Shown: positions 10,135 through 14,816 of the stretch, piece by piece
How the letters are laid out: every line of letters begins with the position of its first letter
Position numbering within the stretch: position 1 is the stretch's first letter
IMG/VR virus record: IMGVR_UViG_2548876941_000006
DNA from: a virus
Taxonomy: Duplodnaviria; Heunggongvirae; Uroviricota; Caudoviricetes
Direction: 5' to 3' (one strand)
Length of the DNA stretch: 14,816 bases
The notes under the pieces: generated by a model
What the model saw: only the letters and a program-made list of their open reading frames with translations
Databases searched by the model: none
What the model was told of the DNA's origin: nothing
Program-made: the position numbers and the translations under genes

Positions 10135-11353
10135 CGTTCTTTTCCTCTTTGCCTTTCGTATCTTTAAAATCATTCAACGGATTTGCTGCATTTACGCTGA
10201 CCAGCATTTCATCCAGACCATCAACCGGGTTCATGTCCTCAAATGCCCTGGCTTCATTCCGGCTCATCCAGCCATCTGTAATGGCAAAGTGATAAAACTG
10301 CGCACGCTCCTGTGGAGTCCCGCGGAGCAATCCTGTAAGGTTGAAACGAACGTAATACCCGGCAGCCCGTTCTGTGCGGGTAAACAGGCGACGGTTAAGC
10401 TCCTGCTCCCAGTTCGCAACCCAGGGCATCATCGTGTAGCGAACAAACTGAATCGCCTGCTGTGTAATATTCGAAAATGTGGCTTTTTCCAGGTCATTAA
10501 TCATGTGCGCCGGGACATTAAAAATTCCGGCAATCATCGACCGGTTCAGCTTGGTCATATCAATGATCTGAGCATCCACCGGAGAAACTGTCAGGGCACG
10601 GTAATCCAGTTGCGCAGGCAGCAGCATGGTTTTATTTTCCTGACTGCGAAGCGCTGTCACCGCCCGCTGCCACATATTCTTGAGCCTGCTCCAACTCTGT
10701 TCGTTCAGTTCATTTTTCACAGAGATAATCCCGGCAGGACGGGCATTACCGTTAAAAAAAGCACTGGTATACTGCTGACCACTCATTCCCATACCAATGG
10801 TTTCAGCATGCTGCATGATCGGACTCAGTCCCATTTTCTGATTGTTTCCCAGCGCCCTGATATGGATCATATCGTCCGGACTTACCGCAAATGCCCCCTC
10901 TTCGTTATACACCCCGTAGGTATGACGCCCACCAGTATTAAGTAACGTGGTTTCCCATGGCATACAGCATTCAAGACTGGTAACCTCGCCACGACGATTA
11001 CGTTTTACCCACGTATAACCATTGCCCCACCCCAGCACATGACGCTGCTTCAGTTCCCGCCACTTATAGCTGGTCTGCCAGGCATTAGGTTCATCATGAA
11101 CGAGCCAGAACAACGGATGATCGCGTGCCGGCTGAACATGCTCATTCGTTTTTCGCATCACATGCAGGGGCATCTGAGCCACACTGGATGAAATAACATA
11201 AATACAGGCATAGACAGCAGCCAGCTTCATGGATGTTTCCGGACTGACATACACATCCCGGGCAAAAATATTATCCGTCTCAGCGGCCTCTCCGGTTACC
11301 GGAACCGAGGGATTTTCCAGAGGCTCACTGCGAAACAGAGCATCAAGAAGCAT
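10127..11353 (-). CDS. Portal protein (HK97 family)
   Basis: 408-aa ORF with GAGGAGAAAAC immediately before the ATG. Position directly downstream of the large terminase gene and size are typical of HK97-family portals. Confidence 0.9.
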   Translation of the reverse strand: MLLDALFRSEPLENPSVPVTGEAAETDNIFARDVYVSPETSMKLAAVYACIYVISSSVAQMPLHVMRKTNEHVQPARDHPLFWLVHDEPNAWQTSYKWRELKQRHVLGWGNGYTWVKRNRRGEVTSLECCMPWETTLLNTGGRHTYGVYNEEGAFAVSPDDMIHIRALGNNQKMGLSPIMQHAETIGMGMSGQQYTSAFFNGNARPAGIISVKNELNEQSWSRLKNMWQRAVTALRSQENKTMLLPAQLDYRALTVSPVDAQIIDMTKLNRSMIAGIFNVPAHMINDLEKATFSNITQQAIQFVRYTMMPWVANWEQELNRRLFTRTERAAGYYVRFNLTGLLRGTPQERAQFYHFAITDGWMSRNEARAFEDMNPVDGLDEMLVSVNAANPLNDFKDTKGKEEKNDE

Positions 11354-11483
11354 GTTTTCTCCTCATGGACACCACCAGTGCATAAAGCAGCAACAAACAG
11401 CCAGACAGCATCAGAGACGCTGGCAGACCTGCATAAAGATAAACGCCAGCAGTGAGCAAACCGAAACCGATCAGCCCGGTCAT
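11343..11483 (-). CDS. Hypothetical small hydrophobic protein (46 aa) between large terminase and portal genes
   Basis: Read by hand; below the ORF-track length cutoff. ATG (plus 11481-11483) to TGA (plus 11343-11345): MTGLIGFGLLTAGVYLYAGLPASLMLSGCLLLLYALVVSMRRKHAS. It fills an otherwise unexplained gap of about 145 nt in a tightly packed operon, and its 3' end overlaps the portal start. No obvious Shine-Dalgarno sequence, so this is speculative. Confidence 0.35.
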   Translation of the reverse strand: MTGLIGFGLLTAGVYLYAGLPASLMLSGCLLLLYALVVSMRRKHAS

Positions 11484-11500
11484 ATCAGTAATAAGCTGTT

Positions 11501-13258
11501 TCACAGAATTAACAGGTCCTCATCAGGATCAAGCGTGGACAGAAAGTCATTCACGCCCCCACCATTTACCAGAAAGCGGCTCATGGCTGTAAAAAGCGCA
11601 ACAGGGCCGTCGATTTTGGCTTCCGGCGTGGATTTATTCGGGAAGATATTGTCGTTTTTGTCCGGTTTTACTGTAACGTTAGACATCATCCAGTTCATGA
11701 CCGGATGATTGCTGTGATGGAAACGCCCGGCATAGACCAGTGATTCCGTTTCCTTCATGGCCTCTGACAGATTGCGGACCGTCTGCGGAACCTCCACCAG
11801 CGGTATCCCTTCTTCAGCCAGTGCCAGGCTGAACTGCATTGCGCTCCACGGGTCAAATCCCAGTTCCCTGAGGTTTTCACCGCCAATCCATTCCAGTAAG
11901 TCACTTTTTATCTGAGCATGATCGATAACATCACCATCCGTCAGGATGAGCTTATCCATCTCCGCCCACTTCCGGTAAAGTTCTGCCTGCTGCCGTGAAC
12001 ACCGTTCCAGTCGCCCTTCCGGAAGCCAGAATTTAAAATCAGCATGAACATGCCCGTTATCCGTTCGCCAGAGTTTTGCCGCCGCACAGATATCAATCTT
12101 ATGAGCAAGGTCGACGCCGACCCACATGGGATACGTTTTCAGCTCATGCTGTGGGGCAATATATTCGCACTTCTCCCACTTAATCATATCCATCCAGGCA
12201 GATTCGGCAGTGACCCACACATTCATGTGTTTGGTAAAAAAATTCACCCGCGCAGAGACCTGCTCCTTCGCTTTTTTCGCCAGACGACGCAGATCATCCC
12301 AGCGTTTACAGATGCCCAGGCCAGGATTCGCTTTCTGCCAGACCGTTTCATCAAACGGATCATCTCCCTCATCGAGCGTGTAAATGATCGCAAAGTAGGA
12401 GTCGTCTTTTACCGCGCCCTCCACGTCGCTGTTATAGCCTCGCAATACCTTAATGGCGTAATCGCGCTGCTCGTAACAAATCCCTTCCTTGTTAAAGCCA
12501 GCCGTGGTGATGCCAAATAACAGGGACTGCAGACGGGCACCGGTTGCCGTCTCCAGAACGTCCCACACGTCGCGGGTTTTATGTGCATGCAGCTCATCAA
12601 TAATGGCGCAGTGGATGTTCAGACCGTCCAGGTTGTTTGCATCCGAGGAAAGCGGTTCAAATTTTGATGCGCTCTGCTCCTGGTAAATCGCCAGCTTGTT
12701 GAAATCAAACAACCGCCCGAGTGTCGACCGGGCTTTTCTGACCATATTTTTGGCGTCTTCAAACACGATTCTGGCCTGGTCACGCGTGGTTGCGGCTGAA
12801 TACACCTCAGCACCGCCTTCACCATCTGCCCCCGTCATATACAGGCCGATACCCGATGACAGGGTTGATTTTGCGTTTTTACGGGCGACTTCGTTGTACG
12901 CCGTCCGGAACCGGCGCACCATCACCGGGCGTCCGCTGCCATCGCTGCGCATGACAACTTCCCCGGTCTCTTCATTGACCAGCGGAATGACAAAACCAAA
13001 AATATTAATGAGGATAAATACATGCCAGTCCATCAACTCAATGGGCTGGCCTGCCAGCGCCCCTTTCACATGGGGCACAAATTTGTAGAAATTCAGGATG
13101 TGCTGCGCACGGGGTTCACTGAAATAAATCCCCCGCTCTTCGCCGTACTTCAGATCATCAAGAAAACGCTGGCAGGCCAGACGGACAAATTCGCCAGCAA
13201 CAATTTCTCCTGCAACAACACGTTCGGCGTAGCGGATCCCGTCAGCCACTTTTGCCAT
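11501..13258 (-). CDS. Terminase large subunit
   Basis: 585-aa ORF whose ATG overlaps the small terminase stop (ATGA). Size and position between the small terminase and portal genes fit; N-terminal ATPase and C-terminal nuclease regions are expected but motifs were not formally searched. Confidence 0.9.
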   Translation of the reverse strand: MAKVADGIRYAERVVAGEIVAGEFVRLACQRFLDDLKYGEERGIYFSEPRAQHILNFYKFVPHVKGALAGQPIELMDWHVFILINIFGFVIPLVNEETGEVVMRSDGSGRPVMVRRFRTAYNEVARKNAKSTLSSGIGLYMTGADGEGGAEVYSAATTRDQARIVFEDAKNMVRKARSTLGRLFDFNKLAIYQEQSASKFEPLSSDANNLDGLNIHCAIIDELHAHKTRDVWDVLETATGARLQSLLFGITTAGFNKEGICYEQRDYAIKVLRGYNSDVEGAVKDDSYFAIIYTLDEGDDPFDETVWQKANPGLGICKRWDDLRRLAKKAKEQVSARVNFFTKHMNVWVTAESAWMDMIKWEKCEYIAPQHELKTYPMWVGVDLAHKIDICAAAKLWRTDNGHVHADFKFWLPEGRLERCSRQQAELYRKWAEMDKLILTDGDVIDHAQIKSDLLEWIGGENLRELGFDPWSAMQFSLALAEEGIPLVEVPQTVRNLSEAMKETESLVYAGRFHHSNHPVMNWMMSNVTVKPDKNDNIFPNKSTPEAKIDGPVALFTAMSRFLVNGGGVNDFLSTLDPDEDLLIL

Positions 13259-13740
13259 CAGTCTCTCGCTTTTAAAAGCTCCGCCAGCGGATCAACATCA
13301 TCCGGTCCGGCGGTATTTACTTTAGCCCGGCTTGCCGGTGACATACCAAACTCTGCAAGCATCGCCCGGATCCGCTTCCAGACATCCGCCTTCATCGCAG
13401 CAGCCGGGTGTGCCTTAATCAGCACATCACCGTTCTGCGTTTCCGTGCGGTAGGTATAACCCTCAGCATCAAGTGTTTCGCAGTGATGCCGGTATTCGGT
13501 GTAGGCTTCCACCAGTAACTCGAGTGCACGCGCATCAAGCTGAGAAATGATCCCTTCCGCATTCAGTTCTTCCGCCGTTCGCCTGAACCAGTACTTCCCC
13601 TGCGCCCCTAAATGTTGCGGAATTTTAGGGAGACCTTTTTCATCCTTTTTAGCGTTTTTTTTGGGGTCTTTAACGGGGCGCTTTGAGGGGTTGCCTCGTA
13701 TCAAATGCAGGCGTGGCGGGGTTTTCGGGGGTCCGGACAT
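13258..13740 (-). CDS. Terminase small subunit (P27-family-like)
   Basis: 160-aa ORF with a basic N-terminus (MSGPPKTPPRLHLIRGNPSKRPVKDPKKNAKKDEKG), immediately upstream of and translationally coupled to the large terminase gene. This type is commonly paired with an adjacent HNH endonuclease. Confidence 0.85.
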   Translation of the reverse strand: MSGPPKTPPRLHLIRGNPSKRPVKDPKKNAKKDEKGLPKIPQHLGAQGKYWFRRTAEELNAEGIISQLDARALELLVEAYTEYRHHCETLDAEGYTYRTETQNGDVLIKAHPAAAMKADVWKRIRAMLAEFGMSPASRAKVNTAGPDDVDPLAELLKARD

Positions 13741-13887
13741 AATCGGTTTTACCTATCAATCATTTAATCACATTCCAAAAAAAAGTTTTCGAACCTGCGG
13801 CGATGCGAGGAAAGGTCAGGCGGCGGTCCTGAGCAGCCTGGGTTGCAGAGATTTGACCCGCCCCTCCCCTGCAGATGGGAACTGTTA
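13741..13887 (-). other. Candidate cos (cohesive end / packaging initiation) region between the HNH and small terminase genes
   Basis: 147-bp non-coding gap exactly where HK97-like genomes place cos. It contains a GC-rich element TCAGGCGGCGGTCCTGA (13816-13832) with inverted 5-bp arms (TCAGG/CCTGA) around an asymmetric core, plus an A8GT4 tract (about 13777-13790). Functional assignment is inferred from position. Confidence 0.35.
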
Positions 13888-14238
13888 TCAATTGATGCGT
13901 TCGCGCGCTGTTTTTGCTTTATGGCAGGGCCAGCACAGACTCTGCAGGTTACTGTCTGCATCCGTGCCACCATGAGCTTTCGGAATGATGTGGTCCACCG
14001 TTCTGGCTTCAACGGCTCTCCCATTGCGCAGGCAGTTCTGACACAGATGATTATCACGCTTCAGTATGCGCGCACGTATGGCATCCCATTTCGAGCCATA
14101 GCCACGCTGGTGGCGACTCAGTCCGCGTTGATGCTGTACCCATCCTTCGCCACGATGTTTATCGCAGTAACCAGAACTGTCTGTTGTTGTGCCTGCACAT
14201 CCACGCTTACGGCAGGCGCGTGGGATTAGTGATGGCAT
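13888..14238 (-). CDS. HNH endonuclease (packaging-associated)
   Basis: 116-aa ORF preceded by GAGGT. It contains paired cysteine motifs (CRKRGC...CDKH and CQNC...CWPCH) and a DHIIPKAHGGTDADSNLQSLC core typical of HNH nucleases. It lies directly upstream of the terminase genes. Confidence 0.85.
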   Translation of the reverse strand: MPSLIPRACRKRGCAGTTTDSSGYCDKHRGEGWVQHQRGLSRHQRGYGSKWDAIRARILKRDNHLCQNCLRNGRAVEARTVDHIIPKAHGGTDADSNLQSLCWPCHKAKTARERIN

Positions 14239-14280
14239 AAATACCTCATACCCTGCGAAATGTTTACCACGATAAAAAGG

Positions 14281-14748
14281 CTACTTAATGCACTGAGTGC
14301 GGATATACTCCTGTGCCCCTTCCAGTTGCATCTGCATCGTCATCAGCCGCTCTCTGAGGGTGAAATAATCCCGTTCAGCGGTGTCTTCCAGTCGGGGGCT
14401 GGTTGCATTATCCACGCGGGTGGGTCCGGTGGCTTCACGCACGGCTGCGGAGCAACTGGCATTGACCCGCAGGCGCTTACGACCAGCGGCAACATCAGCG
14501 CGCAGAGTTTCATTTTCAGCTTTCGCATTGGCTAATTCTCTCGAGTACTTTGCATCGAGCACAGCAACATCACGCTGACGCTGCTGCATGTCAGCGATGG
14601 TGGCGTTCGCCAGCTTCAACTCTCTGGCGTTTTTGTCACGCTGCTCTTTGTAGGAGATGGCGTTATCACGGTAATGATTAACAGCCAACAACAGGCAGGC
14701 GATGATGCAGATAACCAGTGTGGAGATAATCGCGGTAACTCTGCTCAT
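14281..14748 (-). CDS. Rz: Rz i-spanin (inner membrane spanin subunit)
   Basis: Start placed at ATG 14746-14748 ([55 protein letters not shown]...), which overlaps the stop of the upstream endolysin frame (ATGA). N-terminal TM helix followed by a coiled-coil periplasmic domain. Very similar to lambda Rz as recalled. Confidence 0.9.
14343..14528 (-). CDS. Rz1: Rz1 o-spanin lipoprotein, embedded in the +1 frame of Rz
   Basis: 61-aa ORF entirely inside Rz: [61 protein letters not shown]. It has a lipobox (LVVSAC) and a proline-rich mature region, and resembles lambda Rz1. Confidence 0.85.
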
Positions 14749-14816
14749 TGTTGCCCCCATAAACAGACTTCACGCTCAATCTCACGGCGAGTCATCAGCC
14801 CTTTCCATTGCTTACC
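14745..14816 (-). CDS. 3' end of endolysin gene (probably a lysozyme-type R); 5' portion outside window
   Basis: Minus-strand frame is open from the window edge to a TGA at 14745-14747 that overlaps the Rz start. The C-terminal peptide is ...[23 protein letters not shown]. Position immediately upstream of Rz/Rz1 is where the endolysin sits in lambdoid lysis cassettes. Only 23 codons are visible. Confidence 0.5.

Follow-up and report, generated by a model that had tools for sequence, protein, structure and literature searches.

A predicted HK97-type cos site between the HNH endonuclease and small terminase genes of an Escherichia coli prophage

Our analysis indicates that the 147-nt gap between the HNH endonuclease and small terminase genes described here is very probably the cos site of a prophage with HNH-dependent, HK97-type cos packaging, and that two modules are arranged there around a predicted staggered cut. 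The window, by which we mean the whole 14,816-nt stretch of IMG/VR record IMGVR_UViG_2548876941_000006, carries an ordinary member of the well-studied HK97-type kind of cos. An earlier reading of the sequence alone had placed a candidate cos in this gap, with the virion ends falling inside the prophage, and homology to phages with defined ends supports that placement, the predicted overhang (13816-13825) lying within the 17-mer that the reading had singled out. The evidence that carries the cos call is homology and conservation, not the symmetry of that 17-mer. The genes around the gap are as follows.

14281-14760, minus strand: Rz spanin gene, from the ORF map
13888..14238, minus strand: gene of a 116-aa HNH endonuclease, the accessory nuclease in HK97-type packaging (Pfam HNH PF01844, E = 1.9e-16)
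13741-13887: the 147-nt gap, between the HNH ORF and the TerS ORF
13258..13740, minus strand: small terminase (TerS) gene, 160 aa, P27 family (Pfam PF05119, Terminase_4)
11501..13258, minus strand: large terminase (TerL) gene, 585 aa (Pfam TerL_ATPase PF03354 and TerL_nuclease PF20441)

Every gene in this part of the window lies on the minus strand, and in gene direction the ORF map and Pfam matches give the order Rz, HNH, gap, TerS, TerL, portal, S78 protease and HK97-fold capsid (Phage_capsid), with all packaging and head ORFs full length and strongly matched in Pfam. The gap thus occupies the position of an HK97-type cos, between the HNH gene and the small and large terminase genes that open an HK97-like head module, and all 32 related genome loci likewise have an HNH gene ahead of terS. 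An HNH gene beside the genes for TerS and TerL is the HK97-type cos arrangement according to PMC13595956, which cites Kala et al. 2014. The window HNH protein is 90% identical to that of phiP27, 37% identical to HK97 gp74 and 51% identical over 67 aa to the HNH protein of D3, and the window TerL is 37% identical to phiP27 TerL and 28% identical to HK97 TerL (gp2), with which it has the PF03354 and PF20441 domain pair in common. The statement that this is the only sizeable non-coding gap in the packaging module is roughly right; another interval of 147 nt separates TerL from portal (11354-11500), and a 53-aa ORF spans it.

In the direction of the genes, the gap runs ...GGGGAGGGGCGGGTCAAATC-TCTGCAACCCAGGCTGCTCAG-GAC^CGCCGCCTGA^CCTTTCCTCG-CATCGCCGCAGGTTCGAAAACTTTTTTTT-GGAATG...ATG(terS), where carets mark the edges of the predicted overhang (below, a single caret marks the junction). 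Its features are listed here from the HNH side to the terS side.

13874..13891, minus strand: box TTGATAACAGTTCCCATC, weakly conserved, which overlaps the stop codon of the HNH gene and reads ATGAnAnnnATTCTCATC in relatives
13850..13869, minus strand: G-box GGGGAGGGGCGGGTCAAATC, a conserved right-end element of the virion DNA
13829..13849, from G-box to junction: spacer of fixed length and variable sequence, free of indels in 41 sequences and low in information content
13816..13832: 17-mer TCAGGCGGCGGTCCTGA of the earlier reading, made up of the predicted overhang and 7 nt of the right-end side
13816..13825, minus strand: predicted 10-nt 3' cohesive end 5'-CGCCGCCTGA-3', in register with HK97, SfI, phiP27 and Pm34
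13816/13815 on the minus strand and 13825/13826 on the plus strand: predicted nicks, by homology
13777..13805, minus strand: candidate small-terminase recognition site CATCGCCGCAGGTTCGAAAAC-T8, at +11..+39 from the minus-strand nick and including the A8GT4 tract
13754..13766, plus strand: IHF consensus match WATCAANNNNTTR (TATCAATCATTTA), lying past the candidate TerS site and ahead of the terS start

The register of the predicted cut is set by four references that align with the window in one ungapped frame, namely the ends of HK97, the cos of SfI, the annotated cos-site of phiP27 and the termini of Pm34, and in this register the predicted overhang is homologous to defined cohesive ends. HK97 has 10-nt 3' overhangs, with the cleavage site numbered between -1 and +1 of its record, and its cos cleavage is stimulated by the HNH protein gp74 (PMC9410871, PMC11331095). 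The HK97 GenBank record ends ...ATCAAATC-N24-GAC CGCCGCCAAA (in longer form ...GGGGGGGGATCAAATC-N24-GAC CGCCGCCAAA) and restarts with GTTTG (GTTTGAATTT...), and its counterpart in the window is GGGTCAAATC-N24-GAC CGCCGCCTGA CC, with identical spacing. Alignment against the cos regions of HK97 and its relatives, which the sequence-only reading had named as a check on its proposal, is ungapped and keeps the same register: from the G-box through the 10-mer, 35 of 54 positions are identical to HK97 (shuffle p <= 1e-5), and over the next 45 nt past the 10-mer the agreement is at random level (14/45). Direct sequencing of SfI virion DNA gave a 10-nt gap, TGCCCGCCCC (PMC3636060), and this 10-mer is the end of the SfI record, where it is preceded by ...CCGGAC. 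The feature annotated as 'cos-site' in the phiP27 GenBank record (NC_003356, 21806-21815) is the homologous 10-mer CGCCCGCCCC, following ...GGGAC. The linear Pm34 record starts and ends at ...CTAGGAC^CGCCCCCTTACC... (GGAC^CGCCCCCTTA), exactly at the predicted plus-strand nick; its termini mark the opposite edge of that 10-mer, where a record written in reverse orientation, with its 3' extension on the right, would have them.

From homology to these four references, the minus strand is predicted to carry the cohesive end 5'-CGCCGCCTGA-3', running from 13825 to 13816; HK97, SfI and phiP27 are the source of the predicted nicks and of the predicted polarity of the overhang. A conserved GAC at 13826-13828 precedes the predicted overhang, the (G/T)AC^CGCC junction is nearly invariant across 41 distinct sequences, and the 10-mer differs among relatives at positions 5-10 (CGCCGCCTGA, CGCCGCCTAA, CGCCCGCCAA, CGCCCCCTTA). 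Because the 10-mer varies in this way, and because the overhang of D3 is what we take to be a 9-nt 3' extension, GCGCCCCCA, which gives a 31-nt G-box spacing like that of the window, the exact overhang length and the minus-strand nick could be one base off. Among near-identical E. coli relatives no record is linearised at cos, and no IMG/VR contig was found to start or end at the predicted nick.

Conservation around the junction was followed in 32 genome loci, drawn from other Enterobacterales, whose TerS is 49-73% identical, and in 80 loci of IMG/VR (96-100%), aligned with the reference phages. The 41 distinct sequences, including HK97, SfV, SfI, ST64B, phiP27 and Pm34, align from -62 to +55 without a single indel, and the spacing between junction and terS ATG is confined to 86-89 nt. 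Across 30 loci, columns conserved at 97% or more make up 22% of the 150 nt upstream of terS, against 7.5% of terS third codon positions. The affinities of the two sides are distinct. On the right-end side the window is identical to phiP27 at 39/44 positions, to SfI at 34/44 and to HK97 at 27/44, and on the TerS side it agrees with Pm34 and the loci L011 and L038 at 35-36/45 positions and with HK97, SfI and phiP27 at 14-15/45, which is 78-80% within the same TerS family versus 31% for HK97, SfI and phiP27. The closest relative is phiP27 on the right side and mEp235 together with Pm34 on the left, and DNA similarity to phiP27 ends at window position 13819, inside the predicted overhang. Fourteen E. 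coli loci are natural hybrids that combine a phiP27-like right side with a window-like left side and carry the hybrid 10-mer CGCCCGCCAA; the right-end module pairs freely with unrelated TerS-side modules, the recombination joints falling inside the 10-nt overhang. The alignments indicate that the right-end side is common to phages with unrelated or barely related TerS proteins and that the left-end block tracks the TerS family. A G-box held at fixed distance, together with a left-end block that is swapped along with TerS, suggests that different proteins may read the two sides of an HK97-type cos.

On the right-end side, the G-box stands upstream of the predicted plus-strand nick at a fixed 31 nt, counted from the T of TCAAA to the junction, and its consensus over the 41 distinct sequences is GGGGAGGG(G/C)GGG followed by (T/A)(C/A)AA(A/G). 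It is common to HK97, SfV, SfI, ST64B, phiP27, Pm34 and the Pseudomonas phage D3, and is retained from E. coli to Pseudomonas phages in which TerL and HNH are only 28-51% identical. In IMG/VR the G-box occurs ahead of more than 10 different downstream modules, each time with a GC-rich stretch 31 nt later, and in PhiR49_2 the HNH gene is separated from the G-box by an insertion of 730 bp, with G-box, predicted nick and TerS side staying together. The weaker box at 13874..13891 has similar sequences in HK97 (ATGAGAATGAATCGCATC) and D3 (ATGAGAAAAATTATCAT) and is not kept in PhiR49_2, where the insertion abuts the G-box. On this comparative evidence we propose that the G-box would serve as a cosQ-like site or as a docking site for TerL/HNH. 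A broader reading, which we advance tentatively and with some doubt, is that the G-box GGGGnGGGGCGGGTCAAA and the weaker ATGAnA...TCTCAT box may together form a distinct, widely conserved HK97-type recognition element, either a cosQ-like termination signal or a TerL/HNH docking site; if true, the G-box would be a handle on how HK97-type motors recognise the genome end. No description of the G-box was found in the literature examined, and full-text searches with the overhang and G-box strings returned no phage matches. Two other roles were considered for the G-box and rejected: a ribosome-binding site, as no start codon follows GGAGG, and a G-quadruplex, as there are three G-runs only. A repeat search also paired the G-box with the 5' end of terS in an inverted match (16 nt, 75%), the other repeats being short and at chance level.

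On the opposite side of the predicted cut, 13777-13805 is assigned as the candidate TerS site because a block at +11..+39 ending in T8 lies where HK97 TerS binds an A-tract site, the minimal HK97 site being 15 bp at +15..+29, of which TerS reads one G:C pair and the adjacent A-tract shape (PMC11331095). The block has the general form CCGCAGGTTnGAAAAC-T6-8 at +11..+39 and the consensus CATCGCCGCAGGTT(A/C)GAAA(A/C)(C/T)T5-8, and GGTTCGAAA is part of the candidate site in the window. Across 30 loci with TerS proteins 49-73% identical, CCGCAGGTT is invariant and the T-run is conserved. The A8GT4 tract (13777-13789), which had been taken for a bend or IHF-type site, is present, but it is the T8 tract of this conserved block read on the other strand and so sits in a block that covaries with TerS, while the only IHF consensus match lies elsewhere, at 13754-13766. 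On this analysis A8GT4 is more likely to be part of the predicted TerS site than an IHF site. The match at 13754-13766 is the only one in the 14.8-kb window, where 0.55 would be expected, and the IHF consensus is kept in the E. coli variants (TATCAATCGTTTG) and absent from other genera; it is possible that this stretch is a putative bending site. A GGGGnnCCCC palindrome follows the T-run in nearly all other genera and is missing from the lineage of the window.

Comparison with individual phages places the site within the known HK97-type systems. HK97, whose cos requires TerS gp1, TerL gp2 and the HNH protein gp74, and the window have in common a cos between HNH and terS, the G-box with its 31-nt spacing, the GAC^CGCCGCC junction, 8 of 10 overhang positions, and an A/T-tract block one to four helical turns downstream, where HK97 TerS binds. 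They differ in TerS, which is of the P27 family in the window and shows no similarity to HK97 gp1 in BLASTP, hhalign or PDB sequence searches, and in the downstream module, which is unrelated (14/45). The T-run lies at +32..+39 in the window and at +24..+30 in HK97, the terS ATG at +76 and +50, respectively, and the HNH gene ends ~320 nt before the genome end in HK97 as against ~60 nt in the window. phiP27 and the group of SfV, SfI, SfII, SfIV and ST64B share with the window the HNH protein (90% for phiP27, ~75% for the Sf phages), the register of the 10-mer and a TerS of Pfam PF05119, but their overhang is CGCCCGCCCC or TGCCCGCCCC instead of CGCCGCCTGA, their TerS is only 21% identical, and their downstream module reads TTTTTAyACCCGCGAAA where the window has CCGCAGGTTCGAAAAC-T8. 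Pm34 and mEp235, whose TerS proteins belong to the same family as that of the window (62% and 71% identical, respectively), share all modules with it, the TerS-side block of Pm34 agreeing at 35/45 positions; Pm34 differs in its overhang, CGCCCCCTTA, and in the palindrome GGGGAACCCC after the T-run, which the window lacks. The D3 record has the G-box GGGGTGGGGCGGGTCAAAAC 31 nt ahead of its final 9 nt and an HNH gene upstream (51% over 67 aa), and its TerS is distantly P27-like, whereas the junction is GGACACC^ rather than GGAC^ and both the host and the downstream module differ.

It could be argued that the gap does hold a cos, but one in which the symmetric 17-mer is a nicking site like lambda cosN, with the arms read by a symmetric nuclease dimer and the A-tract acting as an IHF or bending site. 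The strings on which the sequence-only reading based its suggestion lie where it placed them (TCAGGCGGCGGTCCTGA at 13816-13832; A8 at 13777-13784, G at 13785 and T4 at 13786-13789), the 17-mer overlaps the predicted overhang, and GGCGGCG is shared with lambda cosN, occurring within lambda GGGCGGCGACCT. There are further parallels with lambda in the order of a termination-side element, nick site, TerS-binding region and terS, in GGCGGCG at the nick site and in a possible IHF site on the terS side. The arms TCAGG/CCTGA, flanking CGGCGGT, make up the one perfect 5-bp inverted repeat in the gap whose spacer does not exceed 12 nt; however, such repeats are expected by chance, with a mean of 1.7 per 147 bp in shuffles (74% of which contain at least one) and 2.4 in the whole window. 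In about 60 of 66 near-identical E. coli IMG/VR loci of this junction type, or ~90%, the sequence is TCAGT...CCTGA (TCAGTACCGCCGCCTGA), with one arm base broken, and other genera lack the arms, having AAAGG...CCTAA, TAGG...CCTTA and similar (AAAGGACCGCCGCCTAA, TAGGACCGCCCCCTTA, AAGTACCGCCGCCTTA); the conserved part of the 17-mer is its asymmetric core. The arm centre (13824) and that of the predicted overhang (13820/13821) are also 3.5 nt apart, so no two-fold symmetry is centred in the overhang as in lambda-type sites. The 5-bp arms are therefore a chance feature and no evidence of a two-fold nicking site, contrary to the partial symmetry that had been read into them. The lambda resemblance is superficial: the heptamer is real, but it lies on the opposite strand relative to the terminase genes, and in place of gpNu1/gpA with cosN in the lambda orientation the window has a TerS of PF05119 and a TerL of PF03354 and PF20441, families unrelated to those of lambda. 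Lambda moreover has a 12-nt 5' overhang where a 10-nt 3' overhang is predicted here, the window is without conserved two-fold symmetry, and an HNH protein is needed in systems of its type. With the A-tract itself inside the block that covaries with TerS, we regard a lambda-cosN-like site as very unlikely.

Of the remaining explanations, that of a cos relic, in which case a defective prophage or a site that has ceased to be cut would form no virion ends here, draws on the fact that many E. coli prophages are cryptic, on the window being part of an element only and on the loss in this lineage of the GGGGnnCCCC palindrome of other genera. We consider it unlikely, in view of full-length packaging and head ORFs with strong Pfam matches, of cos blocks preserved intact, with identical or near-identical sequence, in hundreds of genomes, and of phage genome records deposited for close relatives (phi467 and the vB_EcoS/vB_EcoM series, at 94-97% identity in this region). 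A mainly transcriptional or RNA regulatory gap, holding a promoter, terminator, antiterminator or terS leader RNA, would suit a location inside the late transcript just 5' of terS and the Shine-Dalgarno-like GGAGG in the G-box. Yet a scan of 13500-14300 found no sigma-70-like promoter and no intrinsic-terminator-like site, an Rfam search of the gap gave zero matches at E <= 1, GGAGG has no start codon after it, and the conserved blocks coincide with the physical genome ends in HK97, SfI and Pm34, all of which makes a primarily regulatory function highly improbable. Headful packaging, in which the gap would hold only a pac-like initiation site, was a generic alternative raised by the sequence-only reading, with nothing specific in its favour. 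It is confronted by the HNH gene beside the terminase genes (the arrangement of Kala et al. 2014, as cited above), by a TerL with the Pfam domain pair of HK97 TerL and 28% identity to it, and by SfI and SfIV, related phages for which cos packaging with defined ends is reported, and we judge its probability to be close to negligible.

An HK97-type cos in this gap, by analogy with the systems compared above, would operate as follows. After excision and concatemer formation, the P27-family TerS would bind CATCGCCGCAGGTTCGAAAAC-T8 (13777-13805), 11-39 bp to the terS side of the cut, and recruit TerL, whereupon TerL and the HNH protein would nick the two strands 10 nt apart and leave 3' cohesive ends 5'-CGCCGCCTGA-3'. 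Packaging would then run from the terS end through the genome and terminate at the next cos, which the motor would reach by way of the HNH gene and then the G-box (13850-13869). The G-box would be met 31 bp, or about three helical turns, before the junction and on the same helix face, in a position like that of lambda cosQ, and our working hypothesis is that it probably positions the nuclease or signals termination, as lambda cosQ does.

The region is present in 1022 of 5426 complete E. coli genomes (~19%), almost always on the chromosome, and bears no feature annotation there; among the carriers, strain EPSSH018 is 100% identical over 13650-13990. E. coli genomes give no sign that the cos core has additional copies away from HNH and terS, of the kind that satellites might carry, as the core is found in 902 places, fewer than the 1118 of the larger query. 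The result will not surprise a specialist, since the mechanism would be that of HK97, and the modular anatomy of the site is a side observation of some value. What the analysis fixes is the predicted position of the virion chromosome ends, at 13815/13816 and 13825/13826. This should be useful for annotating a prophage family carried by about one fifth of complete E. coli genomes, and may help in interpreting read termini and in judging which DNA could be transduced or which satellites would be able to hijack the phage.

The conserved G-rich element upstream of the predicted cos junction (the G-box) extends well beyond the close relatives of the window. The motif GGGG(A/T)GGGGCGGGTCAAA lies at the right end of Pseudomonas phage D3 (ends, L254/L253) and, in IMG/VR (L255-L317), 5' of a wide variety of putative cos junctions, some of them in GC-rich genomes, and in every case a GC-rich stretch begins 31 nt past the T of TCAAA. 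The G-box is accompanied upstream by a weaker conserved box, found in most relatives as well as in HK97 and D3 (L254), which is listed below with further features of the region and of the packaging module.

Additional features of the cos region and packaging module
13874-13891: weaker conserved box, ATGAnAnnnATTCTCATC, a short inverted repeat ATGA...TCAT
13706-13721 and 13858-13873: 16-nt inverted repeat, 75% complementary, pairing a terS arm with a G-box arm
11343-11504, minus strand: 53-aa ORF between TerL and portal, occupying the packaging module's second 147-nt interval
About 90-160 nt upstream of terS: hybrid region in 14 E. coli IMG/VR loci

In the window the weaker box overlaps the HNH stop codon, and the HK97 copy (L127) lies approximately 60-75 nt from the right end; farther upstream, AATCATTTCAAATGCAAT is common to HK97 and some relatives. 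In phage PhiR49_2 (L130, PV340570.1) the G-box is separated from the HNH stop by a 730-bp insertion with an opposite-strand ORF of approximately 170 aa, and despite this insertion the G-box, nick and terS side are still contiguous.

On the terS side, alignment of window positions 13740-13776 with relatives revealed a GGGGnnCCCC palindrome directly after the T-run of the candidate TerS-recognition block in nearly all relatives from other genera. The window lineage lacks this palindrome, reading GGAATGTGATT, and carries instead the window's sole IHF consensus match (13754-13766). The arms of the 16-nt repeat, CCGCCCCTCCCCTGCA in the G-box (plus strand) and TGCAGGCGTGGCGGGG at the 5' coding end of terS, are 136 nt apart with the whole cos between them; this repeat may be a chance product of GC-rich sequence. 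Where the window has the 53-aa ORF, between TerL and portal, phiP27 carries a small gene for a 'membrane protein' (L37).

Two assemblies show an anomaly that coincides precisely with the cos region. In phage Evi (L131, LR597642.1) an inverted terS piece stands in place of the entire nick region and the 3' portion of HNH, and the circular record of Providencia phage PSTRCR_117lys (L125/L126, MW358929.1) is missing approximately 45 nt across the nick, reading ...CTCTCGCC|GGTTAGAAAAC... Both may have arisen as artefacts of assembly where the DNA physically ends.

The hybrid E. coli loci (L059, L060, L064, L068, L069, L077, L084, L085, L095, L102, L104, L105, L109 and L117) combine a window-type TerS (96-97% identical) with a phiP27-type HNH side. 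Because the modules join inside the predicted 10-nt overhang, so that the resulting 10-mers (for example CGCCCGCCAA or CGCCCGCCTA) are hybrids, cos looks, from these sequences, like a recombination joint between phiP27-type HNH-side and window-type TerS-side modules.
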